Positions 12,129-37,302 of a stretch of DNA of 64,000 bases are shown here, piece by piece (position 1 is the first letter of the stretch; each line of letters begins with the position of its first letter). Below the pieces are notes generated by a model that had not been told where the DNA came from, searched no databases, and worked only from the letters and a program-made list of their open reading frames with translations. Source of the stretch: Alphaproteobacteria bacterium (GTDB taxonomy: Bacteria; Pseudomonadota; Alphaproteobacteria; Bin95). Position numbers and translations under genes: made by a program. The DNA lies in contig CAXXWS020000001.1 of the NCBI GenBank assembly GCA_963665325.3, forward strand, positions 32,001 through 96,000. The letters are read 5' to 3'.

Positions 12129-12185
12129 GGCTCTGGCTCTCCGAACGGTTGTCTCTTGGCGCCGGTCGGCGGCAAGACCGGTTCG

Positions 12186-12298: not shown

Positions 12299-12313
12299 TA
12301 GAACATTAAGCAG

Positions 12314-13294
12314 TCAACGCCTGTGAAGCACTTCAAGGCGATGGTGCGACGGTGTTTCGCCAAACCGCTTCCGGTAGGCGGTGGCGAAATGGGCGGCGCC
12401 GGAAAAGCCTGTGGCAATTGCAATTTCGAGTATGGGCAGGTCGGTCTGGCGTAATAGTTCGCGGGATTTCTCCAGCCGCAGGTCGCGATAGAACGCCCCG
12501 GCGCTGCGGCCCAGCCCGGCGCGGAATTGCCGATTCAGATGACGCGCGCTCACGCCGGCAATTTGGCCAAGGTCGGAAAGCGGCAGCGGGTCGGCGATAT
12601 GGTTTTCCATTGCCTCTATAGCGGCCAGTACGGCGTGTCGGTTCGTGCCGTAACGCTCCGCGAGGCCGGCCCGCTGCGGACCGCCGGCGGGACGCACATC
12701 GGTATGCATGAACCAGTCGCTGACCCTCCGCGCGAAGTCCGCACCGTGATGCTCGGCGATAAGGGCGTGCATCATGTCCAGCGGCGCCGTCCCGCCGGCG
12801 CAGGTGATGCGGTCGCGGTCCACGACATAAAGGGTACGCTCCAGGAGGAGGCCGGGGTGCCGCTCGGCCAGGGCGGCGGCGTGCTCCCAGTGAAGCGTCA
12901 TCCGCCGGTTTTCCATGATGCCGGCATTGGCGAGTACCGCCGGCCCGCCGGAGACGCCGCCCAGCATGCGGCCATGCCGGGCCTGATGCCGCAGCCATTG
13001 AAACACCCGGTCGTCCTGAAAGCCGACCGGGTCGCCGCCGGCGACGACGAATGCGAGGTCGTATGCACCGGTCGCTTCCCCGAGCCCGGCGACCGCGACC
13101 GAAGCCGCGGACGAACTGTTCAGCAGCTCCGCCGTCTTCGGCCCGGCGGCGAAATGGAAGACTTCGTATAGCCGTCTGCCGGCCAGCAGATTGGCGGCGC
13201 GCAACGGTTCGCTCACGGCGGCGAACGACATCAGCGCAAAACCCTCGACAAGGACGAACGCAACCCGGCGGACGGGAAGAGTCGGTTCAAGCAT
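12314..13294 (-). CDS. GlxA-family AraC transcriptional regulator
   Basis: VLVEGFALMSFAAVSEPLRAAN, TLHWEH, TCAGGTAPLDMM, AraC C-terminus; divergent from sox/mgd. Confidence 0.9.
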   Translation of the reverse strand: MLEPTLPVRRVAFVLVEGFALMSFAAVSEPLRAANLLAGRRLYEVFHFAAGPKTAELLNSSSAASVAVAGLGEATGAYDLAFVVAGGDPVGFQDDRVFQWLRHQARHGRMLGGVSGGPAVLANAGIMENRRMTLHWEHAAALAERHPGLLLERTLYVVDRDRITCAGGTAPLDMMHALIAEHHGADFARRVSDWFMHTDVRPAGGPQRAGLAERYGTNRHAVLAAIEAMENHIADPLPLSDLGQIAGVSARHLNRQFRAGLGRSAGAFYRDLRLEKSRELLRQTDLPILEIAIATGFSGAAHFATAYRKRFGETPSHHRLEVLHRR

Positions 13295-13380
13295 GTCTTG
13301 ATTATTAAAGAATACGTCCACAAACGGGAAGCGTAGAATTGGAGATCGGCGCATCAATCGGGCGTTGGACCGAGGACGCC

Positions 13381-14631
13381 ATGCGCTATTCCGTATTGCA
13401 AATCCTCAGGCAGGGCCTGACAGGCAATCGCGGCTGGAAGCCGGTCTGGCGCGAGCCGGAACCGAAGCGGCACTACGACACCATCGTTGTCGGCGGCGGC
13501 GGGCACGGCCTCGCCACAGCCTACTATCTGGCCTCGGTGCACGGCCTGACCGATGTCGCGGTGCTTGAAAAGGGCTGGCTCGGCTCCGGCAATGTCGGCC
13601 GCAACACGACGATCGTCCGCTCCAACTATCTGCTGCCCGGCAACGAGCCCTTCTACGAACTGTCGATGAAGCTGTGGGAAGGCCTGGAGCAGGACGTCAA
13701 CTACAACGCCATGGTCTCGCAGCGCGGGATCATCAACCTGTACCACAGCGACGGTCAGCGCGATGCCGCCGCCCGGCGCGGCAATGCCATGATCCTCGCC
13801 GGAGCCGATGCAGTCCTGCTCGACCGCGAGGCGTTGCAAAGGAAATGCCCCTACCTGGACTTCGACAACGAACGCTTCCCGATCAAGGGTGGGCTGTGGC
13901 AGCCGCGCGGCGGCACGGTGCGCCACGATGCGGTCGCCTGGGGTTATGCCCGCGGCGCCGACCGGCGCGGCGTGGATTTGATCCAGAACTGCGAAGTGAC
14001 CGGCTTCGACATTCGTAACGGCGTGTGCCACGGCGTCGAGACGCCGCGCGGCACGATCGGGGCCGACAGGGTGGCGGTCTGCGTTGCCGGTTCCTCCGGC
14101 CGGGTCATGGGCTATGCCGGTCTGCGCCTGCCGATCGAAAGCCATGTCCTGCAGGCCTTCGTCACCGAAGGGCTGAAACCCGCCATTCCCGGTGTCATCA
14201 CTTACGGGGCCGGGCACTTCTATGTCAGCCAGTCCGACAAGGGCGGCCTGGTCTTCGGCGGCGATATCGACGGCTACAACTCCTACGCCCAGCGCGGCAA
14301 CCTGCCGATGGTCGAGGATGTCTGCGAGGGCGGCATGGCGCTGATGCCGATGATCGGCCGGGCGCGGGTGCTGCGCATGTGGGGCGGCCTGGTCGACATG
14401 TCGATGGACGGCTCGCCCTTCATCGACAAGACGCCGGTCGAGGGGCTCTATTTCAACGGCGGCTGGAACTATGGCGGCTTCAAGGCGACTCCGGCGAGCG
14501 GCTACTGCTACGCCCACCTGATTGCGACCGGCGCGCCGCACCCGGTCGCCGCCGAGATGCGGCTGGACCGTTTCGAGCGCGGCGCCCCGATCGACGAAAA
14601 GGGCGTCGGCGCCCAGCCGAACCTGCATTAG
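13381..14631 (+). CDS. soxB: Heterotetrameric sarcosine oxidase beta subunit / N-methylglutamate dehydrogenase MgdA-like
   Basis: VGGGGHGLATAYYLA, GNVGRNTTIVRSNY, RHDAVAWGYARGA, GGFKATPASG. Confidence 0.9.
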   Translation: MRYSVLQILRQGLTGNRGWKPVWREPEPKRHYDTIVVGGGGHGLATAYYLASVHGLTDVAVLEKGWLGSGNVGRNTTIVRSNYLLPGNEPFYELSMKLWEGLEQDVNYNAMVSQRGIINLYHSDGQRDAAARRGNAMILAGADAVLLDREALQRKCPYLDFDNERFPIKGGLWQPRGGTVRHDAVAWGYARGADRRGVDLIQNCEVTGFDIRNGVCHGVETPRGTIGADRVAVCVAGSSGRVMGYAGLRLPIESHVLQAFVTEGLKPAIPGVITYGAGHFYVSQSDKGGLVFGGDIDGYNSYAQRGNLPMVEDVCEGGMALMPMIGRARVLRMWGGLVDMSMDGSPFIDKTPVEGLYFNGGWNYGGFKATPASGYCYAHLIATGAPHPVAAEMRLDRFERGAPIDEKGVGAQPNLH

Positions 14632-14641
14632 GGCGCGCGGG

Positions 14642-14929
14642 ATGATTATCGACCATCCGCTCCTCGGCCCGCGCGACGCGCAGGAGTTCGTCATTCTTGG
14701 CGATGCGAGCCTGATCGACCGGCCCGACTGGCAGGCCGAGGACGCCGCGCAACTCTTCCACGACTATCTGCACCTGCGGGACAACCCGGCCGGCGAGCAT
14801 CGGGAGCTGTGGTTCCACGAGCAGGGCGACCGCTCCTGGCTGGTCGTCACCCGCAGCACGCTGACCCACGAGGTCCTCAAGGTCGAACTGGCGCGCGATG
14901 TCGCCGTTGCCCGGGGGCGAGACCGGTGA
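14642..14929 (+). CDS. soxD: Sarcosine oxidase delta subunit (Cys-free variant) / MgdB-like
   Basis: GPRD..EF, YLHLRDNPAG, ELWFH..G...W..VTR.T.THEV; lies between beta and alpha subunits. Confidence 0.85.
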   Translation: MIIDHPLLGPRDAQEFVILGDASLIDRPDWQAEDAAQLFHDYLHLRDNPAGEHRELWFHEQGDRSWLVVTRSTLTHEVLKVELARDVAVARGRDR

Positions 14930-17871
14930 GCGGGCCGTTCCGCCTCGATGGCGGCCGGGTCGACCGGAGCGCGAGCCTCGATTTCCGGTTCGATGGCCGG
15001 AGCCTTTCGGGCCATCCCGGCGATACGCTGGCCTCGGCGCTACTCGCCAACGGGGTTCGGCTGGTCGGCCGGAGCTTCAAGTATCACCGGCCTCGCGGTG
15101 TCTTCACCGCCGGTTCGGAAGAGCCCAGTGCGTTGGTCGAGCTGCGCGGCGGCGCCTGGCGCGAGCCGAATACGAGGGCGACCGTCGCGGAGCTGTTCGA
15201 CGGGCTGGAGGCGTTCAGCCAGAACTATCGCGGTTCGCTGCGCCGCGACCTGCTGGCGGTCAACGATCTGCTCGCCCCCTTCCTGTCGGCCGGCTTCTAT
15301 TACAAGACCTTCATGTGGCCGAAATCCTTCTGGGAGCGGGTCTATGAGCCGGCCATCCGGGCCTCGGCCGGTCTCGGCCGCTTGTCCGGCGAGGCCGATC
15401 CGGACAGCTACGACAAGGGTTTCCTGCATTGCGACCTGCTGATCGTCGGCGCAGGTCCCGCCGGGCTTGCCGCCGCGCTGGCGGCCGGGCGCAGCGGCGC
15501 GCGGGTCATACTGGCCGACGAGGACTTCGTCATGGGCGGGCGGCTCAACGCCGAGACCCATGAGGTGAACGGTCGGTCCGGCGCGGATTGGGCCACCGAA
15601 GCCGTGCGCGAACTGGCGTCCATGAACCGGGTCCGTCTCCTCCCGCGGACCACGGTCACCGGCGCCTACGACCACGGCGTTTACAGTGCGCTAGAGCGCC
15701 GGACCGACCATCTGGCCACCGCCAACGGCAAGCCGCGTCAGATCCTGTGGCGGATCTACAGCAAGCGGGCGATCCTGGCCGCCGGCGCCACGGAACGGCC
15801 CATTGCATTCGGCGGCAACGACCGGCCCGGCGTGATGCTGGCCGGGGCGGTGCGCGCTTACGCCAACCGGTTCGCCGTCGGCGCCGGCCAGCGCGTCGGC
15901 CTGTTCACCAACAATGACGACGGCTGGCGCACGGCCGCCGATCTCGCCCGGAAGGGAGTCGAGGTCACAGCGATTATCGACGCGCGGGACCGCGAATCCG
16001 TCGCCGAGGTGCCGGGCGCCCGGATCGTAATGGGCGGCCGCGTGACGGCGACCCGGGGGCGCCACGGTTTGAAGGGGATCGCCTTGGCGACCGGCGAGTG
16101 GATCGCGCTGGACTGCCTTGCGGTTTCCGGCGGCTGGAACCCCAACGTCCATCTGACCTGCCATCATGGCGGCAAGCCGGTCTGGCGCGACGGGATCGCC
16201 GCCTTCGTGCCCGGCGACCTGCCGCCCGGCATGACCGTTGCCGGCGCGGCGGGCGGCGCTTTCACTACCGCAGCCGCGCTGATCGAGGGGCATCGGGCGG
16301 CGGTCGAGGCGCTTGGCGAACTTGGACTTCCGGCCGACGCAGGCGATGCGCCGGGGGCGAGCGACGAGGCAGCCGACGTTGCGCCCTTCTGGCATGTCGC
16401 GGAGAGCCGGGGCCGGGCGTGGCTTGACCTGCAGAACGATGTGACGGTGAAGGACGTCGTGCAGGCGCATGGCGAGGGCTTCCGCTCGGTCGAGCACCTG
16501 AAGCGCTACACCACGCTCGGCATGGCGACCGACCAGGGCAAGACCGCGAATGTCGGCGCGCTCGCCATCATGGCCGAGCAGACCGGCCGCACCATCGCCG
16601 AGACCGGCACCACGATGTTCCGCCCGCCCTATACGCCCGTGCCGATCGCCGCCTTCGCCGGGCGTTCGCGCGGCATGGAGTTCCGCCCGACCCGCCTGAC
16701 GCCGAGCCACGACTGGGCGGCGAAGCGGAGCGCCGTCTTCGTCGAGGCCGGCGCGTGGTTGCGCGCCCAGTGGTTCCCCCGGCCCGGCGAGACCTACTGG
16801 CGGCAGTCGGTTGACCGGGAGGTCCTGCAGACCCGGGGCTCGGTCGGCATCTGCGATGTCACGACGCTCGGCAAGATCGATATCCAGGGGCGCGATGCGC
16901 AAGAATTCCTCAACCGCATCTATGCCAACGGCTTCGCCACGCTGGCGGTCGGCAAGGTGCGCTACGGTCTGATGCTGCGGGAGGACGGCATCGCCTACGA
17001 TGACGGCACGACCGCACGGCTCGGCGAAAACCATTTCGTCATGACGACGACGACGGTGAACGCCGTGCTGGTGTTCCGCAACATGGAGTTCGCCCGCCAA
17101 TGCCTGTGGCCGGGGCTGGACGTCCATCTGATCTCGGTCACCGAACAATGGGCGCAGTTCGCCGTGGCCGGCCCCAATTCGCGCGCGCTGCTTGGGAAGA
17201 TCGTCGATCCGGAGCACGACATCTCCAACGAGGCCTTCCCCTTCATGGCCTGCGGCGAGGTCGGCGTGTGCGGCGGCGCCCCGGCCCGGCTGTTCCGCAT
17301 TTCCTTCTCCGGCGAGCTGGCCTACGAGCTTGCGGTGCCGGCGCGTTACGGCGAAGCCCTGATGGAAGCGCTGATGGCAGCGGGCGAGGAGTTCGACGCG
17401 GTCGCCTACGGCACCGAGGCGCTCGGCGTCATGCGGATCGAAAAGGGACACGCGGCAGCTAACGAGCTGAACGGCCAGACCACGGCGCGCATGCTCGGCA
17501 TGCAGCGCATGGTGTCGAAGAGGAAGGACTGCATCGGCAATATCCTGTCCGAACGCCCCGAAATGAACCGCGAGGACGGACTGGAGCTGGTGGGCTTCAG
17601 GCCGGTAAACCGTTCGGAGGAATTGCCCTCCGGCGCCCACTTCCTCTCAATCGGCGCCGAGGCGGCGATGGCGAATGACGAGGGCTGGATGACATCGGTC
17701 GCCTGGTCGCCGGAACTGGGCCATTCGATCGGCCTCGGGTTCATCCGCAACGGCCACGCCCGGATCGGCGAAACCGTGCGCGCCTGGGACGGGGTACGCG
17801 GCAGGGACGTGGCGGTCGAAATCGTCTCGGCGCATTTCCTCGATCCGGACGGGGAGCGGCTCCGTGGCTGA
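14926..17871 (+). CDS. soxA: Sarcosine oxidase alpha subunit / MgdC-like
   Basis: GDTLASALLANG..GRSFKYHRPRG, VGAGPAGL, EHLKRYTTLGMATDQGK, GcvT-like C-terminus; GTGA overlap with soxD. Confidence 0.92.
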   Translation: MSGPFRLDGGRVDRSASLDFRFDGRSLSGHPGDTLASALLANGVRLVGRSFKYHRPRGVFTAGSEEPSALVELRGGAWREPNTRATVAELFDGLEAFSQNYRGSLRRDLLAVNDLLAPFLSAGFYYKTFMWPKSFWERVYEPAIRASAGLGRLSGEADPDSYDKGFLHCDLLIVGAGPAGLAAALAAGRSGARVILADEDFVMGGRLNAETHEVNGRSGADWATEAVRELASMNRVRLLPRTTVTGAYDHGVYSALERRTDHLATANGKPRQILWRIYSKRAILAAGATERPIAFGGNDRPGVMLAGAVRAYANRFAVGAGQRVGLFTNNDDGWRTAADLARKGVEVTAIIDARDRESVAEVPGARIVMGGRVTATRGRHGLKGIALATGEWIALDCLAVSGGWNPNVHLTCHHGGKPVWRDGIAAFVPGDLPPGMTVAGAAGGAFTTAAALIEGHRAAVEALGELGLPADAGDAPGASDEAADVAPFWHVAESRGRAWLDLQNDVTVKDVVQAHGEGFRSVEHLKRYTTLGMATDQGKTANVGALAIMAEQTGRTIAETGTTMFRPPYTPVPIAAFAGRSRGMEFRPTRLTPSHDWAAKRSAVFVEAGAWLRAQWFPRPGETYWRQSVDREVLQTRGSVGICDVTTLGKIDIQGRDAQEFLNRIYANGFATLAVGKVRYGLMLREDGIAYDDGTTARLGENHFVMTTTTVNAVLVFRNMEFARQCLWPGLDVHLISVTEQWAQFAVAGPNSRALLGKIVDPEHDISNEAFPFMACGEVGVCGGAPARLFRISFSGELAYELAVPARYGEALMEALMAAGEEFDAVAYGTEALGVMRIEKGHAAANELNGQTTARMLGMQRMVSKRKDCIGNILSERPEMNREDGLELVGFRPVNRSEELPSGAHFLSIGAEAAMANDEGWMTSVAWSPELGHSIGLGFIRNGHARIGETVRAWDGVRGRDVAVEIVSAHFLDPDGERLRG

Positions 17872-18439
17872 GACCCCTCTCAGGGCCCGACCGGCGCTCG
17901 ACGGCTACAACCGGACGGTCGGCCCGGTAGCGCTCGCCGAGGTTTCCGGCCTGGCGCTGGTGTCGGCGGCGGTGCCGCAGGGCGGGGACGAGGCCTTCGC
18001 CGCGGCGCTGGCCGAAGGCTTGGGCGCCTCCCGCCCGGCGACCGGCGACTCGACTCCCGGCGACCGGCACATGGCACGAATCCTTGGCATGCAACCCGAC
18101 CAGTTGTTCATCCTGTTCGAATCGCCGGACCCGGACCGTCCAGCCGAATCGGTGCTGGCGGCGCTCGGCGGAGCCGCCTACGTCACCGACCAGACCGACA
18201 GCTGGGCCATGCTGCGCATCGCCGGCGCCGGCGTCCGCAGCGCGCTCGAGCGCATCTGCATGCTCGACCTCGCCGACGAAGCTTTCCCCGAAGGCCGGGT
18301 GGCGCGCACCGTTATGGAGCATCTGGCGGTCATTATCCTGCGGGACGGTGCCGACAGCTTCCTGCTGATGAGTCCGCGCTCCTCCGCCCGCTCTTTCCTG
18401 CATGCGGTGGAACTGTCGGTCCTGAACCTGTCCGAATAG
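17864..18439 (+). CDS. soxG: Sarcosine oxidase gamma subunit / MgdD-like
   Basis: TDQTDSW, LERICMLDL, F..G.VART, RSSARSF; overlaps soxA. Confidence 0.85.
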   Translation: MAETPLRARPALDGYNRTVGPVALAEVSGLALVSAAVPQGGDEAFAAALAEGLGASRPATGDSTPGDRHMARILGMQPDQLFILFESPDPDRPAESVLAALGGAAYVTDQTDSWAMLRIAGAGVRSALERICMLDLADEAFPEGRVARTVMEHLAVIILRDGADSFLLMSPRSSARSFLHAVELSVLNLSE

Positions 18440-18540: not shown

Positions 18541-18812
18541 CTAGCCCGCATTTCTCACCAGGGTCACGGCCTGCGTCGCTGTCCAGGCGTTCGCTCCGCA
18601 AGGAGCGGGCCGAAAAGCGTAGCGGTGCCTACGGTTGAGGCCCGCGACGCCGCGGGCGGACGCCTGGGCGCGACCCGAAGGGCGGTGCTGTCGGGCCGAC
18701 AGGGTGCGTCGAGCCGCTTGCCCGATGCCCCGCATCGCGCTGCACGGCTCTCCTACCCTGCCGGCCCGACAGCACCGCGCAGACCATGACCCTGGTGAGA
18801 AATGCGGGCTAG
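18541..18812. mobile_element. 272-bp MITE with ~35-bp terminal inverted repeats beginning and ending in CTAG
   Basis: Left CTAGCCCGCATTTCTCACCAGGGTCACGGCCTGCG vs reverse complement of right end CTAGCCCGCATTTCTCACCAGGGTCATGGTCTGCG; internal hairpins; no credible ORF. Confidence 0.85.
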
Positions 18813-21181
18813 GCCCGAACCCGGGACTTCGTCGGATCGTAGAAGGGGAAGGGCACCACCCGGGCAGGGATGCGTTTCTGGTGGCCGTCGAGCTTGCCGA
18901 CTTCGACCGTCGTTCCTTCCGTCGATGCCGTCACGTCCATCCGGCACAGCGCGATATTCTTGCGCAGGATGGGTGAGCGCATGCCGCTCGTGATGACACC
19001 GACCTGGGCACGGCCGATATGCACGCAGTCGCCGTGCGCAGCCGCCTCCTGCCCTTCCAGTTCCAGACCGACCAGCTTGCGCTGCGGCGATTCCTTGCGC
19101 CGGATCAGGGCTTCCCGCCCTATAAAGTCATCCTCCTTCGTCTTTAGTGGCACGGTGAAGCCGATACCGGCCTCGAAGGGGTCGGTCTGATCGTCGAACT
19201 CGTGGTTGGCGAAAACCAGGCCGGCCTCGATCCGCACCATGTCGAGCGCTTCCAGACCGAAGGGCGAGAGCCCATGCGGTTCGCCGGCCGCCCAGATGGC
19301 GTCCCACACGCCCGCGGCGTCACGCGGATGGCACCATACCTCGAACCCAAGCTCGCCGGTATAGCCGGTGCGGGAGACAACGATCGGGATCCCGGCATGA
19401 TCGCCGATCCGTCCGATCGCAAACCGGAACCAGCCGAGCTCCTCGATCGAGGGCTGGGCGGGGGGCGTCCACACGACCTCCTTCAGGATGTCCCGGCTCT
19501 TGGGACCCTGGACGGCCACGTTATGCAGCTGGTCGGTAGAAGAGCGAACCCAGACATTGAGGCCCAGCTTTCCGGCCTGCTCGCGCATCCATTCACCACC
19601 ATAGTCGGAGCCCCCGATCCAGCGGAAATTGTCGTCGCCGAGGCGGAAGGCGGTGCCGTCGTCGATCATGCCGCCGGTCTCGTAGCACATGGCGGAATAG
19701 ACCACTTGGCCGGTCGCCAGCCGGCGCATGTTCCGGGTGAGCACCCATTGCAACAGGCGTTCGGCATCCGGCCCCAGCACCTCGAATTTCCGCAGCGGCG
19801 ACAGGTCCATGATGACCGCCCGCTCGCGACACGCCCAGTATTCGTCCAGCGCGCCCCGGTTGGTGAAACTGTTGGCTAGCCAGTAGCCGTTATATTCGGT
19901 GAAGTTCCGCGTGTGTGTGGAAAACCGGGCATGGAAACCGGTTTCCTTGGTCAGCTTGGGATCGGCGTCGGGAGTCATACGAAAAGCCACCGCTTTGGAA
20001 AACAGGTTCTCGCGCGGGTAGACCCGCACATGGATGTCGGTCGGGTTCCAGCCATTGGCTGCGTCGATATCGTCCGGACAGGCGGACGATACGCAGACCA
20101 AGTCGGTCAAGGCCTGCAACAGCACGTAGTCGCCTGGCCGAGACCAGGGATTGTCGTGGAATCCCTGGTTGGCATCGTCGAACCCGGTGTTGAAGAAAAA
20201 GTTCAGCGCCATCCAGCCGCGCCGCGGCGCAACCCCGAACGGCGCCAGCACCCGGTTGAAGTTGTCGGTGCAGTTGACGTGGCCGGGATATCCCGTGTCG
20301 TCGTAGTACTTTGCCGTGCAGGCATACAGGAAACTGTCGTGGCGACCGCAGGTGTCGCGGATGACTTCGACCATCGGCTGGAGATCCTGGTCGAAGCATT
20401 TCGACAGCAGGCCCGGCGCCGGATAGGCGCTGCCCATCAAGGTGCGGGTGGCCGTCGCGTCCAGGCAGAGTTCGTGCCCTCCGTCCAGACCGGCGGCGGT
20501 GAAGGCTTGGAAGTCGGAACACTGCCGACCCTGCACGTCGATGATCTGGATGAACTCTCCGGCCTTGACCTCGTAGGCCTCGGCCGTACTGGCGGCGATG
20601 CGCAGGTCGAGACCCGGATCGGTCAGGGGCTCCGGTACCGGGTGCTCGGTGTGCGCAACCGGGTTGGTATGGGTCACGAAAATCTCGATGCGGGTCGGCG
20701 GGTCCTGCCGGTCGACGCGCATGGCGGGTCCCGGCGCCGCGACGAAACACACCAGCGGCCGCTCGGCGACGAACATTGCCTCATCGCCCGGGCGCGACTC
20801 GCCGCCAAGAACGTCGATGGACCGCGCCGCGGCGATATCGAGGCCGCGTCGCTGCAGGGAACCGGCGAGCGACCGGGCGGCCTCGTCATTGCTGCCCAGT
20901 ATCGCCTTCAGGCCCTCGGCGGTTCCGTTCGACGCGGCGCCCAGCGCCTCCGTGTCCGCGGAGCCGCTTGGCGCGAATGCAGCGATCTGAGCGGCCTGTC
21001 GCCCTTCCCGGTCGCGAACCGTGACGCTGTCGCCCGGCTCAAGTGAAAATACGGTCGCGCCACCGCCCTCGGCGACATACCGCTCGACCCCGAAGCCCAG
21101 GGTGGGCACACCGGGAAGCAGCACGGCGCCGGCGGTCGAGGGCCGTTGCGCGAGTGCCGGTATGCGTGTCTCGTCGGTCAT
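18809..21181 (-). CDS. tdm: Trimethylamine N-oxide demethylase (DUF1989 + GcvT)
   Basis: DUF1989 with Zn-type Cys (YACTAKYY, HVNCTDN, SSACPDD) fused to GcvT (DLSPLRKFEV, SRTGYTGELGFE, VRIEAGL); ATGA overlap with the permease. Confidence 0.93.
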   Translation of the reverse strand: MTDETRIPALAQRPSTAGAVLLPGVPTLGFGVERYVAEGGGATVFSLEPGDSVTVRDREGRQAAQIAAFAPSGSADTEALGAASNGTAEGLKAILGSNDEAARSLAGSLQRRGLDIAAARSIDVLGGESRPGDEAMFVAERPLVCFVAAPGPAMRVDRQDPPTRIEIFVTHTNPVAHTEHPVPEPLTDPGLDLRIAASTAEAYEVKAGEFIQIIDVQGRQCSDFQAFTAAGLDGGHELCLDATATRTLMGSAYPAPGLLSKCFDQDLQPMVEVIRDTCGRHDSFLYACTAKYYDDTGYPGHVNCTDNFNRVLAPFGVAPRRGWMALNFFFNTGFDDANQGFHDNPWSRPGDYVLLQALTDLVCVSSACPDDIDAANGWNPTDIHVRVYPRENLFSKAVAFRMTPDADPKLTKETGFHARFSTHTRNFTEYNGYWLANSFTNRGALDEYWACRERAVIMDLSPLRKFEVLGPDAERLLQWVLTRNMRRLATGQVVYSAMCYETGGMIDDGTAFRLGDDNFRWIGGSDYGGEWMREQAGKLGLNVWVRSSTDQLHNVAVQGPKSRDILKEVVWTPPAQPSIEELGWFRFAIGRIGDHAGIPIVVSRTGYTGELGFEVWCHPRDAAGVWDAIWAAGEPHGLSPFGLEALDMVRIEAGLVFANHEFDDQTDPFEAGIGFTVPLKTKEDDFIGREALIRRKESPQRKLVGLELEGQEAAAHGDCVHIGRAQVGVITSGMRSPILRKNIALCRMDVTASTEGTTVEVGKLDGHQKRIPARVVPFPFYDPTKSRVRA

Positions 21182-23172
21182 TCCAGCCCCAACACTTTCT
21201 TGCGTTCCCGGGCCCAGGCGTTGATCAGCTGATCGGCGATCAGGCCCAGGAAGGCGATGCACAGCCCGACGACCAGAGACTGGCCGGCATTGTTATCGGC
21301 CTTGGACCGGAAAATCTCCTGGCCGAGATCCGTGGTGCCGATGAAGGCGGCGATCACCACCATGAACAGCGCGTACATGATCGTCTGGTTGATGCCCAGC
21401 ATGATCGCCGGGAAGGCGAGCGGCATGCGCACCTTCCACAACACTTGGCGCGGCGTGCAGCCCGACGTGATTGCCGCCTCGACAATCTCGTGCGGCACTG
21501 TCCGCAACCCGAAGATCGTCAACCGGGTCGTCGGGATCGTCGCGTAGATCACGATCGCCATGATGGCAGCGAAGTCGTTGACGCTGAACAGCATGATCGC
21601 CGGGATGAGGTAGATGAAGGACGGGAAGGTCTGGAAGGTGTCCAGGATCAGCTCCACAACCCTCGTTCGCCTGGGCCCGGCCGCCGCCCAGATGCCGACG
21701 ATGGACCCGAAGATCACGCAGACGACCACGGCGAAGCTGACCATGTAGGCGGTGATCAACGTCCGCTCCCAATAGCCGGCGAAGGCGAGATAGAGGACAA
21801 ACAGCGCCTGGATGCCGGCGACCTGCCAGCCGCCGTAATACCATCCGAGCGTGACCGCGAAGACCAGCAGCGCCGACCAGGGAAGCATCAGGTACAGGTC
21901 GCGCATCGGGATCAGGACATGGACAAGAAGCGTGTCCTTGATCAGCTCCAGATAGTCGAAGGCGTAGATGATGATGTCGTCGATCAGCGCGTCCCACAGC
22001 GGCGCGGTGGTGATCGACAGCGATTTCGGCCAGAGCTGCAGCGCGGGAATGAACGCCGCCAGAATATAGGAGACGGCGACGACCGCGGCGCCGGCGGTAA
22101 GGAAGGGATGGCGGACGTGGAACGGCCCTTCCCGCATACGCTCCGGTTCCTTGCGCGCCCAGGCCTGGCTCAGCCGGTCGAGGATGATCGCCATGAACAC
22201 GATCACCACGCCGATCTCCAGCGCTTGGCCGATCCACAGCGAACGCAGCCGGTTCAGGAGATCGTGCCCCAGCCCCTTGGCGCCGACGAAGGATGCGAGG
22301 ACGACCATCGCCAGACACAGCATGATGACCTGATTGACGCCGACCATCAGGGTCGGCCGCGCCGCCGGCAGTTCGACCTTCCACAGCATCTGGCGCCTGG
22401 TGCAGCCGGCCATGATGCCGGCCTCCCGCACCTCCGGCGACACCCCCTTCAGCCCCAGAAGGGTCAGCCGCGCCATCACCGGGAAGGCGAAGATGATGGT
22501 GGCGATCGTGCCGGCTTTGTGGCCGATGCCGATGAAGATGGCGACCGGGATCATGTATGAGAAGTGCGGCAGCGCCTGCATGACGTTCAGGATCGGCCAC
22601 AGCAGTGCCTCGAACCAGCGCGTCTTGTAGGCCATGATGCCGAGCACTACCCCGATCGCGCCGGCAATCGGTGCTGCCACCAGGACCACCGACAGGGTAA
22701 CCATCGACAGTTCCCATTTGCCGAAGATCGCCATATAGGCGAAGCAGAACCCGGCGATGATTCCGAGCTGGCGGCCCTGCAGATGCCAGCCGAGGACGAC
22801 CGCCAGCCCGGTCACCGCTATCCAGGGCAGTCCCGGAACCGACTCTGAGAAACCGGCGACCAGAACGGCCTCGACGAAATCCAGCGGGAAATCGATCAGG
22901 TTGGCTATGGCCCGGGTCATGTCCCGGAAGGTGAGGAGGCCGAATATCTCCTCCTTTCGCAGGACTTCAACCGCTGCGTTAATCCACCCGACGAACGGCG
23001 CCGACCACTCCTGCGGGACGATTCTCAGCCAGTCAGGCAGAAACGGGCCGATCAACAGGACGAACACGGCCGGCGCCAGCAGGAAGACCGCGACGCGGAG
23101 ACCGGATTGCCCTGCGCCAACGACCCAGCGGCGGACCGTGAGTTCGCCGCTCAGGACCGCTGCTTCAGCCAC
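21178..23172 (-). CDS. tmoV: TMAO ABC transporter permease (two fused ProW-like domains)
   Basis: Two EAA loops (EVREAGIMAGCT, EIVEAAITSGCT), MQALPHFSYMIP and FQTFPSFIYLIP, GVNQ/GINQ. Confidence 0.85.
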   Translation of the reverse strand: MAEAAVLSGELTVRRWVVGAGQSGLRVAVFLLAPAVFVLLIGPFLPDWLRIVPQEWSAPFVGWINAAVEVLRKEEIFGLLTFRDMTRAIANLIDFPLDFVEAVLVAGFSESVPGLPWIAVTGLAVVLGWHLQGRQLGIIAGFCFAYMAIFGKWELSMVTLSVVLVAAPIAGAIGVVLGIMAYKTRWFEALLWPILNVMQALPHFSYMIPVAIFIGIGHKAGTIATIIFAFPVMARLTLLGLKGVSPEVREAGIMAGCTRRQMLWKVELPAARPTLMVGVNQVIMLCLAMVVLASFVGAKGLGHDLLNRLRSLWIGQALEIGVVIVFMAIILDRLSQAWARKEPERMREGPFHVRHPFLTAGAAVVAVSYILAAFIPALQLWPKSLSITTAPLWDALIDDIIIYAFDYLELIKDTLLVHVLIPMRDLYLMLPWSALLVFAVTLGWYYGGWQVAGIQALFVLYLAFAGYWERTLITAYMVSFAVVVCVIFGSIVGIWAAAGPRRTRVVELILDTFQTFPSFIYLIPAIMLFSVNDFAAIMAIVIYATIPTTRLTIFGLRTVPHEIVEAAITSGCTPRQVLWKVRMPLAFPAIMLGINQTIMYALFMVVIAAFIGTTDLGQEIFRSKADNNAGQSLVVGLCIAFLGLIADQLINAWARERKKVLGLE

Positions 23173-24214
23173 CGGAGTCCGGCTCCCGGGAGAACAGCAC
23201 ATCGAGGATGCGGGTACGGCTCACCACCCCGACGATCCGGTCGCTGTCGTCGGCGACCTGCAGGGGACGCTCGCTGTCGACGATCATCCGCGCGACGTCG
23301 GCCACCTTGTCGGTCTGGCGCACCGTGCGATCCGACACTGGCTGTCCCTCCGCCGGCGCTTGCATGACCGAGGCGATTGTCAGCAGCTTTTCGCGGGCGA
23401 CGTCGCGGGTGAAGTTGGCGACATAGCCGTCGGCGGGCCGTGTCACCAGTTCTTCCGGTGTGCCGATCTGCACGATCCGGCCTTCGTTCATGATCGCGAT
23501 GCGGTCGGCAAGCCGGATCGCTTCGTCGAAATCGTGGGTGATGAACGCAATCGTTTTCTGCAGCATCGTTTGCAGGCGCAGGAACTCGTCCTGCATTTCG
23601 CGCCGGATCAGCGGGTCGAGCGCCGAGAAGGGTTCGTCGAGAAACCAGACATCCGGCTCGACCGCCAGCGACCTCGCGATGCCGACACGCTGCTGCTGGC
23701 CGCCCGACAGCTCGCGCGGATAGTAGCGGTCGCGCCCTTTGAGCCCGACCAGCTCGATGATCTCCAGCGCCCGCTTCTCCCGCGTCGTGCGGTCGACGCC
23801 CTGCACCTCCAGCGGGAAAGCGACATTCTGCAATACCGTCCGGTGGGGCAGCAGGGCGAAATGCTGGAACACCATCCCCATCTTGTGACGGCGGATTTCG
23901 ATCAGCTCCCGGGCGGGAATCTTCAGCAGGTCCTGGCCGTCGAACAGCACTTCGCCGGCGGTCGGTTCGATCAGTCGGGACAGGCAGCGCACCAGCGTCG
24001 ACTTGCCGGAGCCGCTGAGCCCCATGATGACGAGGATTTCGCCGGGAAAGACCTCCAGGCTGGCATGGCGCACGGCGGGAATGTAGCCATCGGCCTCAAT
24101 GGCGCCGTCCGGAGGATCGCCGCCATGCGCGGCAAGAAAACCTTCTGGGTCCCTGCCGTACAGCTTCCAGATGCTTCGGCAGGCGATCTTGGCGTCCAAA
24201 ATCTTCCTCTCCAT
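23165..24214 (-). CDS. tmoW: TMAO ABC transporter ATP-binding subunit (ProV-like, CBS tail)
   Basis: MGLSGSGKST, LSGGQQQRV, LDEPFSALDPLIRREMQDE, ITHD. Confidence 0.88.
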   Translation of the reverse strand: MERKILDAKIACRSIWKLYGRDPEGFLAAHGGDPPDGAIEADGYIPAVRHASLEVFPGEILVIMGLSGSGKSTLVRCLSRLIEPTAGEVLFDGQDLLKIPARELIEIRRHKMGMVFQHFALLPHRTVLQNVAFPLEVQGVDRTTREKRALEIIELVGLKGRDRYYPRELSGGQQQRVGIARSLAVEPDVWFLDEPFSALDPLIRREMQDEFLRLQTMLQKTIAFITHDFDEAIRLADRIAIMNEGRIVQIGTPEELVTRPADGYVANFTRDVAREKLLTIASVMQAPAEGQPVSDRTVRQTDKVADVARMIVDSERPLQVADDSDRIVGVVSRTRILDVLFSREPDSGG

Positions 24215-24297
24215 TCGGCCGCCCCGAAGCGGGAGGATCACGGTACGACTTTTTCCCGGATCGGGAAACGCCGTACCGTCCCCGGCCCGGAACGATA

Positions 24298-24428
24298 ACG
24301 CCATTACGAACCATTACCAACCATTTATCACTGTTGCTGACCTCTATAATCGGTTGACAGCTTGTATTTGAGGTGAATGATGGATCAAGAGCGTCGACGA
24401 GCCCGCACAATTGGTGCAAATTGGTTCG
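24298..24428. promoter_or_regulatory. Divergent tmoW/tmoX promoter with 10-bp-phased CCATT and AATTGGT repeats
   Basis: CCATT at 24301, 24311, 24321; AATTGGT at 24409 and 24419; TTGACA at 24354. Confidence 0.6.
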
Positions 24429-24455
24429 ACGCCAAACGACCGAGGGAGAATCCTG

Positions 24456-25400
24456 ATGCGAAAGATGGCGAAAGCGGCCGGTGCGGCCGTATTGCTGATC
24501 GCAGGCGCCCAGGCCGCCACGGCCGAAACGATCAACATTCCACTCCACAACTGGTCGAGCCAGCTTGTGGGCGCCCGTATCGTGGGCAACATGCTGGAGA
24601 TGGTGGGCGAGAAGGTCGCCTATGTGTCGGCGGACAGCCAGGTGGTCTACACCTCGATGTGCGAAGGCGACATCCACCTCGTGCACGAGGTTTGGCAGGG
24701 CGCATTCGGCGTCAGCTACGAGAAGCAGCTGAATGCGGGCTGCGTGGTCACGGCGGCGACCCATGAGGCCAAGACCCGCGAGGAATGGTGGTATCCCGAC
24801 TATGTCGAGGAGGCCTGCCCCGGCCTGCCCGACTGGGAGGCGCTGAACAAGTGCGCCGAGATGTTCGCGACAGCCGCGACCAAGCCGCAGGGCCGCTTCC
24901 TTGCCGGTCCCGTGGACTGGCTGAAGCACGACCAGGAGCGCGTCGACGGGCTTGGAATGAACTTCAAGGTGGTGAACGCGGGCTCGGCCGCCGCGCTCTG
25001 GGCGGAGTTGAAATCGGCCAGCAAGCGCAAGGCGCCGATCGTGCTGTTCAACTGGACGCCGAACTTCATCGAGGCCCTGTACGAGGGCAAGTTCGTGGAG
25101 TTCCCGACCTATGATGAGGCTTGCCGCAAAGATCCTGCATGGGGCCTGAACCCTGACAAGGCTTATGACTGCGGCAACCCGAAGGACGGCTATCTGAAGC
25201 TTGGCGTGTGGAAGGGCTTCGCCGAGAAATGGCCGAAGGCCTACAAGGTGCTGCAGAAGATGAGCTTCTCGAACCTCGACATCGCCGTCATGGCCAAGCT
25301 GGTCGACGTCGACAAGATGGAGGCGGATGCCGCAGCGGCCAAATGGATGGAAGACAACAAGGCCAAATGGGAGCCTTGGGTGGCTGCGGCCACGATGTAA
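24456..25400 (+). CDS. tmoX: TMAO ABC transporter substrate-binding protein
   Basis: Signal peptide; IPLHNWSSQ, EVWQGAFG, TREEWWYP, ACPGLPDW, GPVDWLKH, NAGSAAALWAE, FNWTPNF match recalled TmoX motifs. Confidence 0.9.
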   Translation: MRKMAKAAGAAVLLIAGAQAATAETINIPLHNWSSQLVGARIVGNMLEMVGEKVAYVSADSQVVYTSMCEGDIHLVHEVWQGAFGVSYEKQLNAGCVVTAATHEAKTREEWWYPDYVEEACPGLPDWEALNKCAEMFATAATKPQGRFLAGPVDWLKHDQERVDGLGMNFKVVNAGSAAALWAELKSASKRKAPIVLFNWTPNFIEALYEGKFVEFPTYDEACRKDPAWGLNPDKAYDCGNPKDGYLKLGVWKGFAEKWPKAYKVLQKMSFSNLDIAVMAKLVDVDKMEADAAAAKWMEDNKAKWEPWVAAATM

Positions 25401-25430
25401 ATTCGGGCCGGAAGCTCGATACCGCGATCG

Positions 25431-25460
25431 GGGCCCGCCAGCGATGGCGGGCCCTTTTCT
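25431..25460 (+). terminator. Intrinsic terminator after tmoX
   Basis: GGGCCCGCCA-gcga-TGGCGGGCCC-TTTT. Confidence 0.8.
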
Positions 25461-25490
25461 TGCGCGTTTCAACCGACAGGGCACTGGATC

Positions 25491-26942
25491 ATGACGGTAC
25501 TGCTGGAAACTCGGGCCGATCTCACGCTCGAAACCGCCCGGCGGGTAGCCTGGGATGGCGAAGGTGTCGAACTCGGCGCCACGGCCCTCGCGGCGATGCA
25601 GCAGGGGCGGGATCGGCTGGAACGCATTCTCGACCATGACCCCGAGGTCACGATCTATGGCGTGACGACCGGTTACGGCCAGTTCGCCCGCAAGCGGCTC
25701 ACGCCGGAGGAGCGCGAACAGTGGGCCGGCATGTCACCGGCCCGCATCGCCGCGTCGTGGGGCGATCCGCTGCCCGAACGCGTCGTGCGCGCCATCGTCC
25801 TGGCGCGCCTGGCCAACTTCGTGGAAGGACATGCTGCGATATCGCCGGAAGTCGCCCTGGGTGTCGCTGCCATGCTGGACGGGGACAGCTTGCCGGCCGT
25901 CCCGGCGCAGGGTCAGGGTGGGGCGGGCGAGATCCTCTCGCTGAGCCACCTGTTTACCGGTCTGGCGGAAAGGATGAAACCCGCGGCTAAGGACGTGTTG
26001 TGCCTGATCAATGGATCGCCGGCGGCCACGGGCCTTGTCGTCGACGCCGCGCTTGCCGCGGACAGGCGCTTCGATATGGCGGCGCGGGTCTTTGCGCTCT
26101 CCTTCGAGGCCTTCAACGCGCCGCTGGGCCATCTCGATCCCGCGCTGGACGGTTACTGGAACAACCCCCATGACAGCTGGGCGCTTCGGCGTCTTCGCGA
26201 ACTGGTGGGCGACGGTCACGGCGGAGAAAGGCGTCCCTATCAGGCGCCCGTAAGCTATCGCATCGTGCCGCGGATGCTGGGCCAGGCGCGGCGGGCAGCG
26301 GCCATGGCCGCGGAGGTCGCGGCCGAGTCGCTCCAGGCGGTGACGGACAACCCGGTATGGATCGATGCCGTCGACGGGGACCACCCCTTCGGTCGCTTCA
26401 TATCGACGGGCGGCTATCACAACCCCCATGCGGCGCTCGCCATGGACGCCCTGACCGCCGCCTGCGCCAATCTCTGCGTTCTTGCCGGACGTCAGGGCGC
26501 CAAGCTTCTGGACGGCGCCGTTTCGCTGCTTCCCGATCAGCTCACTGCCGGCGAACCCGGCGGCGAGGGCCGCCGGGCCCATATGGGAGGCCTGCCGATG
26601 GCCCAGACCGGATATGAAGAGGAAGCCCGTCTCTACGCCCAGCCGACATTGCTCCCCGGCGGGGAATCCGGCGGTTTCGGCCAGAACGACGTCGCCAGCC
26701 CCGTGTTCCTGGCGTGGTCCAAGCAGGACCGCGCCGGGCGGTGTCTCGACATGGCGCTCGCCAGTCTCGTGCCGATCGCCCTGCGTGCGCTCGACGTCAC
26801 CGACCGTCCCGTTCCGCCGCGACTGGCCGGACTCGAGGCCGCAGTCCGGGAGATCGAGCCCGACTTTACGCGGCCCATGGCGTTGGGGCCCGTGGTGGCA
26901 TCGATTGCCGGGGCCCTGCGCCACGACATCTATCCGCAGTGA
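25491..26942 (+). CDS. Aromatic amino acid ammonia-lyase (HAL/PAL) family protein lacking the Ala-Ser-Gly MIO motif
   Basis: IYGVTTGYG, LINGS, TDNP retained; MIO loop reads GQGGAGEILSLSH instead of GSVGASGDLAPLAH. Confidence 0.85.
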   Translation: MTVLLETRADLTLETARRVAWDGEGVELGATALAAMQQGRDRLERILDHDPEVTIYGVTTGYGQFARKRLTPEEREQWAGMSPARIAASWGDPLPERVVRAIVLARLANFVEGHAAISPEVALGVAAMLDGDSLPAVPAQGQGGAGEILSLSHLFTGLAERMKPAAKDVLCLINGSPAATGLVVDAALAADRRFDMAARVFALSFEAFNAPLGHLDPALDGYWNNPHDSWALRRLRELVGDGHGGERRPYQAPVSYRIVPRMLGQARRAAAMAAEVAAESLQAVTDNPVWIDAVDGDHPFGRFISTGGYHNPHAALAMDALTAACANLCVLAGRQGAKLLDGAVSLLPDQLTAGEPGGEGRRAHMGGLPMAQTGYEEEARLYAQPTLLPGGESGGFGQNDVASPVFLAWSKQDRAGRCLDMALASLVPIALRALDVTDRPVPPRLAGLEAAVREIEPDFTRPMALGPVVASIAGALRHDIYPQ

Positions 26943-26966: not shown

Positions 26967-27701
26967 CTACAGAAAATCCCGTTCGTGTACGATTGCCGTC
27001 AGATAGCCTGCGGCCAGAAGCCGGCGGGTGTCGGTCATCTCCAGCGGCTGCTCCCGGCGCCAGATGTCGAGCACATCGCGCGCACGGTTCCCGGCAGCGG
27101 CCTGGATCTTGGCGTCGTACAAAGCCATCCGGGCATCGTCCCCGGCGGCATCGGCCCGGCCGGACAGCACCCGCGCGATTTCGACGACTTCCGTGTTGTT
27201 CGGCCCGAACGCCTGCTCGCGTTCGGCGAGCGCGGCTGTGAGCAGGGCGTCGGCCGTTTCGTCGTCGTCCAGGAAAAGCCGGGCAATCGCGAGGTTGAAG
27301 CGGGTCAGGGCCGCCGCACCGGTCAGGAACTCGCGGTGCCGCGCACGCCGGACGTCGCCATAGGCCGCGACATGGCGCTGTTCCATGCGCTGGTGGAAAA
27401 GCGAACTGCGAGCCGCGGCGCTGACCGCCATGCTTTGCGTCCACTCCATCGCGGCGTCCCACGAGGCTAGCGCTGACGACAGGGCGGGGACCGCGCCGTT
27501 GTGGTCCTGATCGATCAGGAGGGCGAGCGCGCTGTTGTTCTCGCTGGCGGCCCGGCGCGGATCCCCCTCCGGAAAGCCCCGCGCCAAGGTGCCCGCCTGG
27601 CGCCACAGGTGGACCGCCTCCTCACGCCGCGCCGAGCGGTAAGCGTCGAGCGCCGCCGCTGAAAGGGCATCCCACTCCCATTCCGCCGTCACCTCGGCCA
27701 T
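26967..27701 (-). CDS. TPR-like all-helical hypothetical protein co-transcribed with tmm
   Basis: DPRRAASENNSALAL and LAEREQAFGPNNTEV resemble TPR helices; starts 20 bp after the tmm stop. Confidence 0.7.
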   Translation of the reverse strand: MAEVTAEWEWDALSAAALDAYRSARREEAVHLWRQAGTLARGFPEGDPRRAASENNSALALLIDQDHNGAVPALSSALASWDAAMEWTQSMAVSAAARSSLFHQRMEQRHVAAYGDVRRARHREFLTGAAALTRFNLAIARLFLDDDETADALLTAALAEREQAFGPNNTEVVEIARVLSGRADAAGDDARMALYDAKIQAAAGNRARDVLDIWRREQPLEMTDTRRLLAAGYLTAIVHERDFL

Positions 27702-27721
27702 GGCCGGGGGTCCGAACAGCG

Positions 27722-29065
27722 TCAATCCTCCCGGAGATAGCTCTCCATCGAATCGTCCATGGCATCGACCCAGGCGGTGTGGTGGGTCGGGGCCATCGTG
27801 CCGGTCATCACCGACTTGTACGCGTTGTCCCGGAATGTCATGATGTTCTGCTTCTTGTGCTTCTTCCACTGGAAGAAGGCGTCGTTCGCGCCGTCCACAT
27901 CGAAACTCGGATAGTCGGTCTCGGCGATCAATTCCCTGACATAGTCGCCCTGGTAGCGGATCGCGCCATAGTCGTCTTCGAGGGCGTCTTCCGCGGCCAC
28001 CCGATCGACGACGTCGGCTGCCCGGGCGTCACGGTCCGGCACCTGAATGCGGTCCATGACGATGTCCCGGACATACCAAGCCTGAGCGTCGAACATGTTG
28101 AAGGTGTACCACTGGTCCTGCATGCCGAGATAGAACAGCTTCGGATTGTCCACCCACGCAACACCCTTGTAGAGGTCGGCCGTCGCCAGCCGGTTGGCGC
28201 TCCGAAGGCGCAGCTCCGGCGCCATGAACGGGAAGTGGAGCAGATAGCCCGTGCACAGGATGATGGCATCGACGTTGGCCGTCGAGCCGTCCTTGAATGT
28301 GCAGGTATTGCCCTCGACCTTCTGCAGCAGAGGCACCTCTTTCCAGTTGTCCGGCCAGTCGAAGCCCATGGCCGCGGTGCGGTGACTGACGGTGACGGAC
28401 CTGCAGCCGTACTTCCAGCACTGGGAGCCGATGTCCTCGGCCGAATAGCTGGTGCCGATGATCAGGATGTCCTTGTCCTTGAACTCAACGGCGTCGCGAA
28501 AATCGTGGGCGTGCAGCACGCGGCCGTTGAACCGGTCCAGACCGTCGAAATGCGGCACGTTCGGGGTCGAGAAATGACCGGTCGCGACGACGACATGATC
28601 GAAGCTCTCGGTGGTCTCCTCGTCGGTCGTGAGATTCTGCGCCGTGACGGCGAAGAGGCCCGTCGCGTCGTCATAGTCGACCCGCCGGACAGCCGTAAGG
28701 AAGCGAATTGCATCGCGCACGCCCGCCCTCTTTACCCGGCCCTCGATGTAATCAAACAGCACTTCACGCGGCGGATAGGAGGCGATCTGCTTTCCGAAAT
28801 GCTCCTCGAACGTATAGTCCGCAAACTCCAGTCCCTCTTTGGGCCCGTTCGACCACAAGTACCGGTACATGGAGCAGTGGACCGGTTCGCCGTATTCATC
28901 CAGCCCGGTCCGCCAAGTGTAGTTCCACAAGCCGCCCCAGTCCGCCTGCTTCTCGTAGCAGACGATCTCCGGAACGTCCGCGCCGCCGGCCTTTGCCGAC
29001 TGGAACGCCCTCAGCTGGGCGAGGCCGGACGGCCCTGCACCGATCACAGCAACTCGTTTACTCAT
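27722..29065 (-). CDS. tmm: Trimethylamine monooxygenase (bacterial FMO)
   Basis: [36 protein letters not shown] motif [22 protein letters not shown]; adjacent to tdm/tmoXWV. Confidence 0.93.
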
Positions 29066-29142
29066 GGTTTCGCTCACTGTTCTGGCCGGCGGTCGGGACT
29101 GGCCCGAATCGCCCGCACGGTTTCATGACATGTCTCGGTAGC

Positions 29143-30806: not shown

Positions 30807-30913
30807 CCCTCCGCGTTCCGCATGGCTGCGCCGCCATGCTACCAATGGCAGCCGGGGCCGGGCACCGCCCGGTCCCGGCATCGTTTGTCCGCCCCGGCCG
30901 TTGAGACACGCTG

Positions 30914-34307: not shown

Positions 34308-34532
34308 CACCGGCAGGACAGCGGCGGATGCGGGCGGCACGATGGTCGCGAGGTCGTGGCGGCCATCGAGCTCGCCGGCGGCATATGCCTAGCCATTGCA
34401 CCCGGGAGGCGTCCACTCACGGCTCGGGGCCGGGGCGGGAGGGATCCGGAGCGCATGCAATCCGGTTCCGGGGATGGTAAACGGTGCATCTTCGCACTCC
34501 CTGCATACCCGATGCCCGTGAAGGACGACGAC

Positions 34533-35408: not shown

Positions 35409-35427
35409 GCGGCAGGAGGTGTCGACG

Positions 35428-37143: not shown

Positions 37144-37302
37144 CCGGAAGCGGAAACCGGCACGCAAGCAGGATGCCGGCGGCCCGTTCCGAGGCCAACT
37201 GGCGGCGAGGCCGCAGGCGTCGGGTATGCTGTCCGGCGAAATGAACTTGCGAGACGAACTCGTGCAGGGCAGGCAATGCGAACCAGACTGGAGGGTCGCG
37301 GG

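Follow-up and report, generated by a model that had tools for sequence, protein, structure and literature searches.

X and the island around it

A methylamine island in a 64,000-nucleotide stretch of alphaproteobacterial DNA (assembly GCA_963665325.3, contig CAXXWS020000001.1, positions 32,001 to 96,000; hereafter the window) contains an open reading frame (ORF) at 25491-26942(+) whose product was given the working name X. The genes of the island run in the order Amt-family gene, AraC/DJ-1 regulator, soxB..A..G, tdm, tmoW, tmoV, tmoX, X, conserved ORF, tmm and Peripla_BP_6 ABC transporter, with tmoX divergently transcribed relative to tmoWV and tmm convergent with X (Table 1). X had been read from the sequence alone (the sequence-only reading) as a member of the histidine ammonia-lyase (HAL) family that strips trimethylamine from ergothioneine, hercynine or another amino-acid betaine and feeds trimethylamine monooxygenase (Tmm) and the trimethylamine N-oxide (TMAO) demethylase (Tdm). 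The ORF and its family were borne out, as was the placement between tmoX and tmm, the conserved ORF also lying between X and tmm. No hut genes were found near X in the window, as had been stated, and the sole urocanase of the genome, of the hutU type, and its canonical hutH were located on another contig.

Table 1. Coordinates of X, its motifs and the surrounding genes in the window
Feature	Coordinates	Strand	Basis or remark
X (P0001), 483-aa HAL-fold lyase lacking the MIO cofactor motif	25491..26942	+	ORF call, PF00221, predicted structure
Catalytic Tyr loop YGVTTGYG, residues 56-63	25656..25679	+	Tyr56 aligned with the Tyr that acts as base in SgTAM and HAL
Former MIO loop GQGGAGEIL, residues 141-149	25911..25937	+	Gly-Ala-Gly-Glu replaces Ala-Ser-Gly-Asp; one residue shorter
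QAPVSYRI, residues 251-258	26241..26264	+	Gln251 and Arg257 (carboxylate clamp) retained; HAL Tyr280 equivalent is Val
GQNDVAS	26679..26699	+	HAL Glu414 equivalent is Asn
tmoX, TMAO-type OpuAC substrate-binding protein	24411..25400	+	PDB 4xz6 match 2.3e-116
Terminator-like hairpin between tmoX and X	25430..25455	+	11 pairs, then T run
tmoW permease and tmoV ATPase	21178..24304	-
tdm, TMAO demethylase	18809..21262	-	NF053776 1245.7 vs cut-off 1100
tmm, trimethylamine monooxygenase	27722..29077	-	NF058570 823.6 vs cut-off 675
Conserved ORF of no known family, downstream of tmm	26967..27869	-	true start probably later than listed
AraC/DJ-1-type regulator and sarcosine-oxidase-like soxB..A..G, flanking the island	12314..18439	- (regulator), + (sox)

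X matched the PF00221 profile over its whole length (E 1.4e-65) and scored under every NCBIfam cut-off, with hutH (TIGR01225) giving 149.7 vs a cut-off of 539.15. The AlphaFold2 model had a mean predicted local distance difference test score (pLDDT) of 93, and its best Foldseek match was HAL 1b8f at a template modelling (TM) score of 0.87 and 23% identity. The model fitted 1b8f, a tyrosine aminomutase (2ohy) and the Treponema denticola ergothionase (6s7j; TM 0.87, 18% identity) about equally well (TM 0.86-0.87), indicating the HAL fold. No signal-like hydrophobic stretch was found in the sequence at the N-terminus of X. X is a real gene and not a chance ORF, on the grounds of its homologue numbers and of the pLDDT. 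Pieces of X at 95-99% identity were found on short RNA-library contigs from three studies, although this evidence for transcription is weak because DNA carry-over is possible, and regions that these contigs leave uncovered are uninformative.

Active site and family

The Ala-Ser-Gly tripeptide that forms the 4-methylideneimidazole-5-one (MIO) cofactor was absent from X while the catalytic Tyr was present. The motifs named by the sequence-only reading were all located, including the intact Tyr loop, the loop without Ser at exactly nt 25911-25937, and the QAPVSYRI and GGYH replacements, the latter at residues 307-310. The canonical HutH of the same genome (L084:1456-2988) featured GASGD, SH, QDPYSVRC, GGNFH and NQEDH, and relative to this enzyme X retained Tyr56, Asn174, Gln251 and Arg257, which correspond to Tyr53, Asn195, Gln277 and Arg283 of HAL 1b8f. 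The equivalents of the HAL Ala-Ser-Gly, His83, Tyr280, Asn313 and Glu414 were not retained. Among the carboxylate binders Gln251 and Arg257 were present, with Gly at the position of Asn313.

The loss of the cofactor and of four HAL active-site residues could mean that X is a paralogue without catalytic activity, with a role in binding or regulation for instance. Seven residues (Tyr56, Asn174, Gln251, Arg257, Glu147, His310 and Asp400) were nevertheless each conserved in 90% or more of the 69 diverse members aligned, with identities down to 26%, and all 82 family ORFs from homologous loci were intact with their motifs. The RNA-library contigs carrying pieces of X, weak as that evidence is, also speak against a dead protein, and we consider this the least probable of the explanations weighed here.

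In a homology search with X that scored 8000 candidates, 2066 proteins reached E<=0.001. A full scan of representatives at 50% identity yielded 3439 with E<=0.001, of which 186 reached E<=1e-30. The homologues bore no name more specific than "histidine ammonia-lyase" or "aromatic amino acid lyase", and in the ESM Atlas the clusters were labelled just "aromatic amino acid lyase". Among the NCBIfam entries near NF058530 no ergothionase-lyase model was found, NF058527 and NF058533 being unrelated. The loop was aligned in 68 full-length sequences, which were X and 67 of 150 listed representatives. The tripeptide ahead of the conserved acidic residue was GAG in 17, GPG in 10, AAG in 7, GSG in 6 and Ala-Ser-Gly in 3, such that Ala-Ser-Gly was missing in 65 of the 68. 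The pattern [GA]ASGD occurred in 0 of the 82 family ORFs from homologous loci. Signatures of the family were YQAPVS[YWF]R, GG[YF]HN and Q[NDST]D. Three representatives (P0128, P0133 and P0172) had Ala-Ser-Gly-Glu in a shortened loop and eight more of the 68 had x-Ser-Gly, and judged by these residues some family members might still form MIO.

The family was arranged in a quick tree with midpoint rooting and with support from the Shimodaira-Hasegawa-like approximate likelihood ratio test (SH-aLRT) only. In this tree the window gene belonged to a starred clade with 14 rows, a mixture of hut-type and tmm-type loci. When L008 was added to the window clade, HutU was present in 14 of the 15 genomes and Tmm in 12.

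Gene context and co-occurrence

Gene context was compared in 80 homologous loci whose proteins were 50-92% identical to X. The X gene was located directly after hutU, i.e. in the hutH slot, in seven of these (L006-L010, L012 and L072), where the proteins were 83-90% identical and had the same motifs, and the stop codon of hutU overlapped the start codon of X (GTGA) in L006. The hut-operon partners were NCBIfam equivalogs (hutU 944.7 vs a cut-off of 375, HutI 467.8 vs 298, HutF 597.4 vs 525 and HutC 271.2 vs 220), the hutU partner was under the thiourocanate hydratase cut-off (700.9 vs 930), and a HutG-like gene was also present in hut-type loci. Canonical HutH was not found in G001, G002, G003 and G005. 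The TRAP and zinc-ABC genes near these loci were uninformative. In three loci X was directly after soxBDAG-like genes. GGYHNP and YQAPVSYRI were identical in all X proteins compared, which came from 11 of the 13 hut-, tmm- and sox-type loci (L008 had no qualifying ORF), and nine of those 11 shared the loop GQGGAGEILSLSHLF, a loop pattern that was unmatched in L031 and L034.

Seventeen genomes of the genus were examined, nine of which carried X at an identity of at least 81%. Tmm was present in 8 of 9 carriers vs 0 of 8 other genomes, Tdm in 7 of 9 vs 0 of 8, and HutU in 8 of 9 vs 3 of 8. Canonical HutH was found in four of the 17 genomes, all of them carriers. HutU was present in G015, G017 and G007, three genomes of the genus that lacked both canonical HutH and a close X (G007 had only a 40% paralogue). 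Some members of the genus seem to use urocanate without a lyase.

A sample of 400 genomes of the class, each at least 90% complete, included 15 with X. HutU was present in 12 of these 15 vs 97 of the 385 others (one-sided Fisher p 2e-5), Tmm in 5 vs 14 (p 3e-4) and canonical HutH over the cut-off in 12 vs 93 (p 1e-5), counts and p values which overstate the association because related genomes are not independent. In a set of 50 carrier genomes, four of 54 loci having been left out for a genome size limit, Tmm was found in 18 and HutU in 34, with 17 genomes having both, 17 HutU only and one Tmm only.

The hutH slot, and the five of 17 genus genomes in which X was the sole PF00221 gene and HutU was present, could indicate a MIO-free histidine ammonia-lyase standing in for HutH. 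Canonical HutH was however found alongside X in 12 of the 15 sampled carriers and in the window genome itself, and therefore X adds to HutH and does not replace it. A HAL without the loop Ser is almost inactive on histidine. The association with Tmm and Tdm would also be left unexplained, and a stand-in for HutH is thus very improbable.

Ergothionase was considered as an identity for X and is disfavoured. Both X and the Treponema denticola enzyme are MIO-less with the HAL fold, and phmmer aligned them at 23 bits (E 2.2e-4) over the N-terminal third only. The residue-level alignment reached as far as residue 155 of X, and in the T. denticola enzyme the thiolate is bound by Lys384. In the class sample, true ert clusters were confirmed in G368 and G075, with thiourocanate hydratases scoring 1006 and 1038 vs 930 and desulfurases scoring 574 and 599 vs 440. 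They carried a different lyase, represented by L093, whose best PDB match was 6s7j at 1.5e-46 and which shared with X 28% identity over 112 aa only. The ert-cluster lyases are paired with thiourocanate hydratase whereas X is paired with hutU, and no thiohydantoin desulfurase (NF058529) was found in the window genome at E<=10. A role for X in ergothioneine breakdown is disfavoured because the hydratase paired with it is of the hutU equivalog and its genome lacks the desulfurase. By sequence the X family is a large uncharacterised clade remote from the Treponema-type ergothionase.

Family members also occurred in two further contexts. Five of them stood in tandem in G133, preceded by genes for an AraC-type regulator, an S-methyl-thiourocanate hydratase (890.5, cut-off 880) and a desulfurase-like protein. 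This 2.7-Mb genome had eleven X-family paralogues in two tandem arrays of five and six (L098 9082-16460 and L099 565-10985), among which the loop that corresponds to HAL His83 was hypervariable. On Rhizobium jaguaris plasmid pRCCGE525c (L087 4719-14037) a 54% homologue was the first gene of an operon whose other members encode the ATPase, the two permeases and the OpuAC binding protein of a betaine-type ABC transporter. Divergent from this homologue were hydantoinase-like, M20 and UbiD genes, the first two being 64% and 51% identical to true ert-cluster counterparts, and no urocanase-family gene was found within 9 kb of it.

X could conceivably release trimethylamine from a different histidine-derived betaine, for instance S-methyl-ergothioneine, ergothioneine, selenoneine or N-pi-methyl histidine betaine, as suggested by the tandem members behind the hydratase, their hypervariable loop and the ert-like neighbours in R. 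jaguaris. The window clade was however partnered with hutU equivalogs and not with thio- or S-methyl-thiourocanate hydratases, and its own genome had one urocanase and no desulfurase. The true ert clusters examined also used other lyases, of the 6s7j type in L093 and L097 and with Ala-Ser-Gly in L100, and such a substrate is unlikely for X itself. At L100 4814-6700 (G133:C4) a HAL-like lyase with Ala-Ser-Gly, His and Glu stands ahead of a true ert cluster (thiohydantoin desulfurase 598.6 bits, thiourocanate hydratase 963 bits); it scored 491 bits on hutH, under the cut-off, and an Ala-Ser-Gly lyase is odd for the ergothionase slot.

Other neighbours suggested a different kind of product. Four loci had a Rieske alpha/beta pair upstream of X with cinnamate dioxygenase as the best PDB match, and the UbiD pairing of R. 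jaguaris was retained in the Rhizobium tropici CIAT 899 homologue. These genes would suit a trimethylamine lyase, perhaps of broad specificity, for a non-imidazole alpha-betaine of Tyr, Phe or Trp, possibly brominated in sponges, that gives an aryl acrylate. Sponges contain aromatic betaines. The loss of the imidazole His and Glu, the new aromatic residues Trp89, Tyr256 and Tyr309 and the 16 of 50 carrier genomes from which HutU was missing point the same way. The Rieske genes were at least 334 nt off in no fixed arrangement, though, and a non-imidazole substrate would leave unexplained the hutH-slot placement with its start/stop overlap, the HutU enrichment and the array behind a urocanase-family hydratase. 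This explanation is decidedly unlikely, though somewhat less so than a stand-in for HutH. No coherent theme was apparent in the remaining context groups, which featured XRE with an ArrX-like binding protein, aminotransferase with SnoaL, PALP, cupin and CN-hydrolase genes, and aldehyde dehydrogenase with ECH and 3HCDH.

Substrate and reaction

On balance, X is probably a cytoplasmic, MIO-independent lyase that converts histidine betaine (hercynine) to urocanate and trimethylamine. Four lines join in favour of hercynine, namely the loss of MIO with base and clamp retained, the pairing with urocanase-family genes, the betaine-transporter operon and the association with Tmm and Tdm. Among the substrates listed by the sequence-only reading hercynine is favoured because of the hutH slot in 7 of 80 loci and the co-occurrence with HutU.

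From the computed fold, motif pattern, contexts and co-occurrence we infer the substrate, products and chemistry of X as follows. Arg257, Gln251 and Asn174 would hold the carboxylate of N-alpha-trimethyl-L-histidine while Tyr56 on its mobile loop would take the beta-proton. Trimethylamine would then depart directly and leave trans-urocanate, and X would need no MIO because its substrate bears a trimethylammonium leaving group. The urocanate would enter the HutU pathway encoded on another contig. Trimethylamine would pass to the adjacent Tmm, giving TMAO, and then to Tdm, giving dimethylamine and a C1 unit.

This chemistry is proposed by analogy with MIO-less relatives described in two Shewanella preprints. 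Swoo_3913 of Shewanella woodyi is described as a histidine betaine trimethylammonia-lyase that converts hercynine to urocanate and trimethylamine, and as a periplasmic, Mg2+-dependent enzyme coupled to urocanate reductase for anaerobic respiration (bioRxiv 10.1101/2025.08.13.670108). By the published description it has in common with X the PF00221 fold, the lack of Ala-Ser-Gly, the catalytic Tyr, the Gln/Arg carboxylate binders and the proposed reaction. It differs by that description in keeping His117, Glu467 and Asn339, the equivalents of which are gone in X, and in being periplasmic and respiratory, whereas X has no signal peptide and is tied to Hut catabolism and Tmm/Tdm. SO_3299 of Shewanella oneidensis is reported to be a periplasmic, flavocytochrome-linked N-pi-methyl histidine betaine lyase (bioRxiv 10.64898/2026.04.22.720169) and, as described, retains most ergothionase residues, unlike X. 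As described, SO_3299 shows that MIO-less lyases diversified over histidine-betaine derivatives, and the 11 paralogues of G133 suggest likewise for the X family.

A number of observations weigh against hercynine as the substrate. His83 and Glu414 (P. putida HAL numbering), which bind the imidazole in HAL, were replaced in X by Ile and Asn, and Tyr280 and Asn313 by Val and Gly, while the ert-cluster lyase L093 retained His and Glu-Asp. EgtD was not found in the window genome and no hercynine transporter was evident, TmoX being of the TMAO type, and the terminator-like hairpin parts tmoX from X, so that their co-transcription is not assured. Physical linkage was the exception, with hutU in 7 of 80 loci, tmoX and/or tmm in three (L004, L005 and L014, all at least 89% identical), sox in three and varied genes in the rest. 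A Tdm relative of 60% identity was 6-8 kb off in two further loci (L049 and L069), and synteny with tmm and tdm, which had been set beforehand as a check on the sequence-only reading, thus turned out mostly lacking among the homologues. Neither HutU nor Tmm was present in 15 of the 50 carrier genomes. In the sister clade of 13 rows HutU was found in 2 and Tmm in 0, and just seven conservative fixed differences part this clade from that of the window. The relatedness of the sampled genomes, as given above, belongs on the same side, as do the Rieske pair and UbiD beside Rhizobium homologues, which hint at aryl-acrylate products. The known ergothionases and the histidine-betaine lyase are described as keeping the imidazole His and Glu (bioRxiv 10.1101/2025.08.13.670108; 10.64898/2026.04.22.720169). 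The main points left unexplained by a hercynine lyase are the loss of the imidazole His and Glu, the carriers without HutU and Tmm, and the contexts that hint at aryl acrylates.

The sequence-only reading therefore held for a MIO-less HAL-fold enzyme with its motifs, base and clamp in a methylamine island, and close kinship with ergothionase was not supported, at 23 bits to 6s7j. Its substrate list is narrowed by the hut context, which favours hercynine, and by the hutU partner and missing desulfurase, which disfavour ergothioneine. The proposed feeding of Tmm and Tdm was reflected in co-occurrence at the genome level, and in gene linkage at only 3 of 80 loci.

A broader proposal is put forward more tentatively. 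The X family may be a second origin of MIO-independent lyases in the HAL fold, apart from the Treponema-type ergothionases, that forms a large cytoplasmic clade stripping trimethylamine from histidine-derived betaines and feeding urocanase-family hydratases, with a hypervariable substrate loop and up to 11 tandem paralogues per genome. Its role in Alphaproteobacteria associated with sponges would be to link the breakdown of hercynine through Hut to the oxidation of trimethylamine by Tmm and Tdm.

A search for trimethylamine from histidine betaine returned, within the paper library covered, only the two preprints of 2025-2026, both on Shewanella enzymes that are periplasmic and respiratory. If the proposal is true, X would be their counterpart in another lineage, cytoplasmic and assimilatory, and a new entry into the methylated-amine metabolism of aerobic marine and soil bacteria, with the entry point lying in hut operons or Tmm/Tdm islands. 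Marine trimethylamine would then have an aerobic source and sink that has gone unrecognised, and sponge-associated and soil bacteria would have a new aerobic source of the compound. A function would also be given to a large family now named just "aromatic amino acid lyase", and hut operons without hutH would be explained. Culturable carriers of the family include Rhizobium tropici CIAT 899 and R. jaguaris, whose homologues are 51-54% identical to X. Neither "S-methyl thiourocanate" nor "thiourocanate hydratase" occurred in the paper library covered, and the work behind those NCBIfam names (NF058529-NF058532) may already assign a lyase. Searches on hutH1/hutH2, MIO-independent lyases and hypaphorine degradation found nothing bearing on the X family.

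Other features of the island were also recorded. Two congeners with X in a hut operon (L090 and L091) had tmm and the conserved ORF directly abutting soxA, followed by soxB and AraC. The 8-kb block tdm-tmoWV-tmoX-X (window 18809-26942) was missing at that site in both, as a result of insertion or deletion, and in one of the two (G008, the same as G003) tdm was located about 16 kb off on the same contig. The conserved ORF (26967-27869) was 83-88% identical in L004, L005 and L014 and 85-88% in the hut-type L090 and L091, and still adjoined tmm where X was absent. It had no match in Pfam, NCBIfam or PDB and, as listed, failed a coding test on G+C at third codon positions (GC3), while RNA-library contigs covered part of it.

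The region at 10776-18439 comprised an Amt-family transporter, the AraC/DJ-1 (GbdR-like) regulator and a heterotetrameric sarcosine-oxidase-like set beside tdm, and a regulator 38% identical to this AraC/DJ-1 type preceded the hydratase-X array of G133. On the other side of the island, 29496-40650 contained a five-gene Peripla_BP_6 ABC transporter followed by GST-like, gamma-glutamyltranspeptidase, TPP-enzyme and luciferase-like monooxygenase genes.

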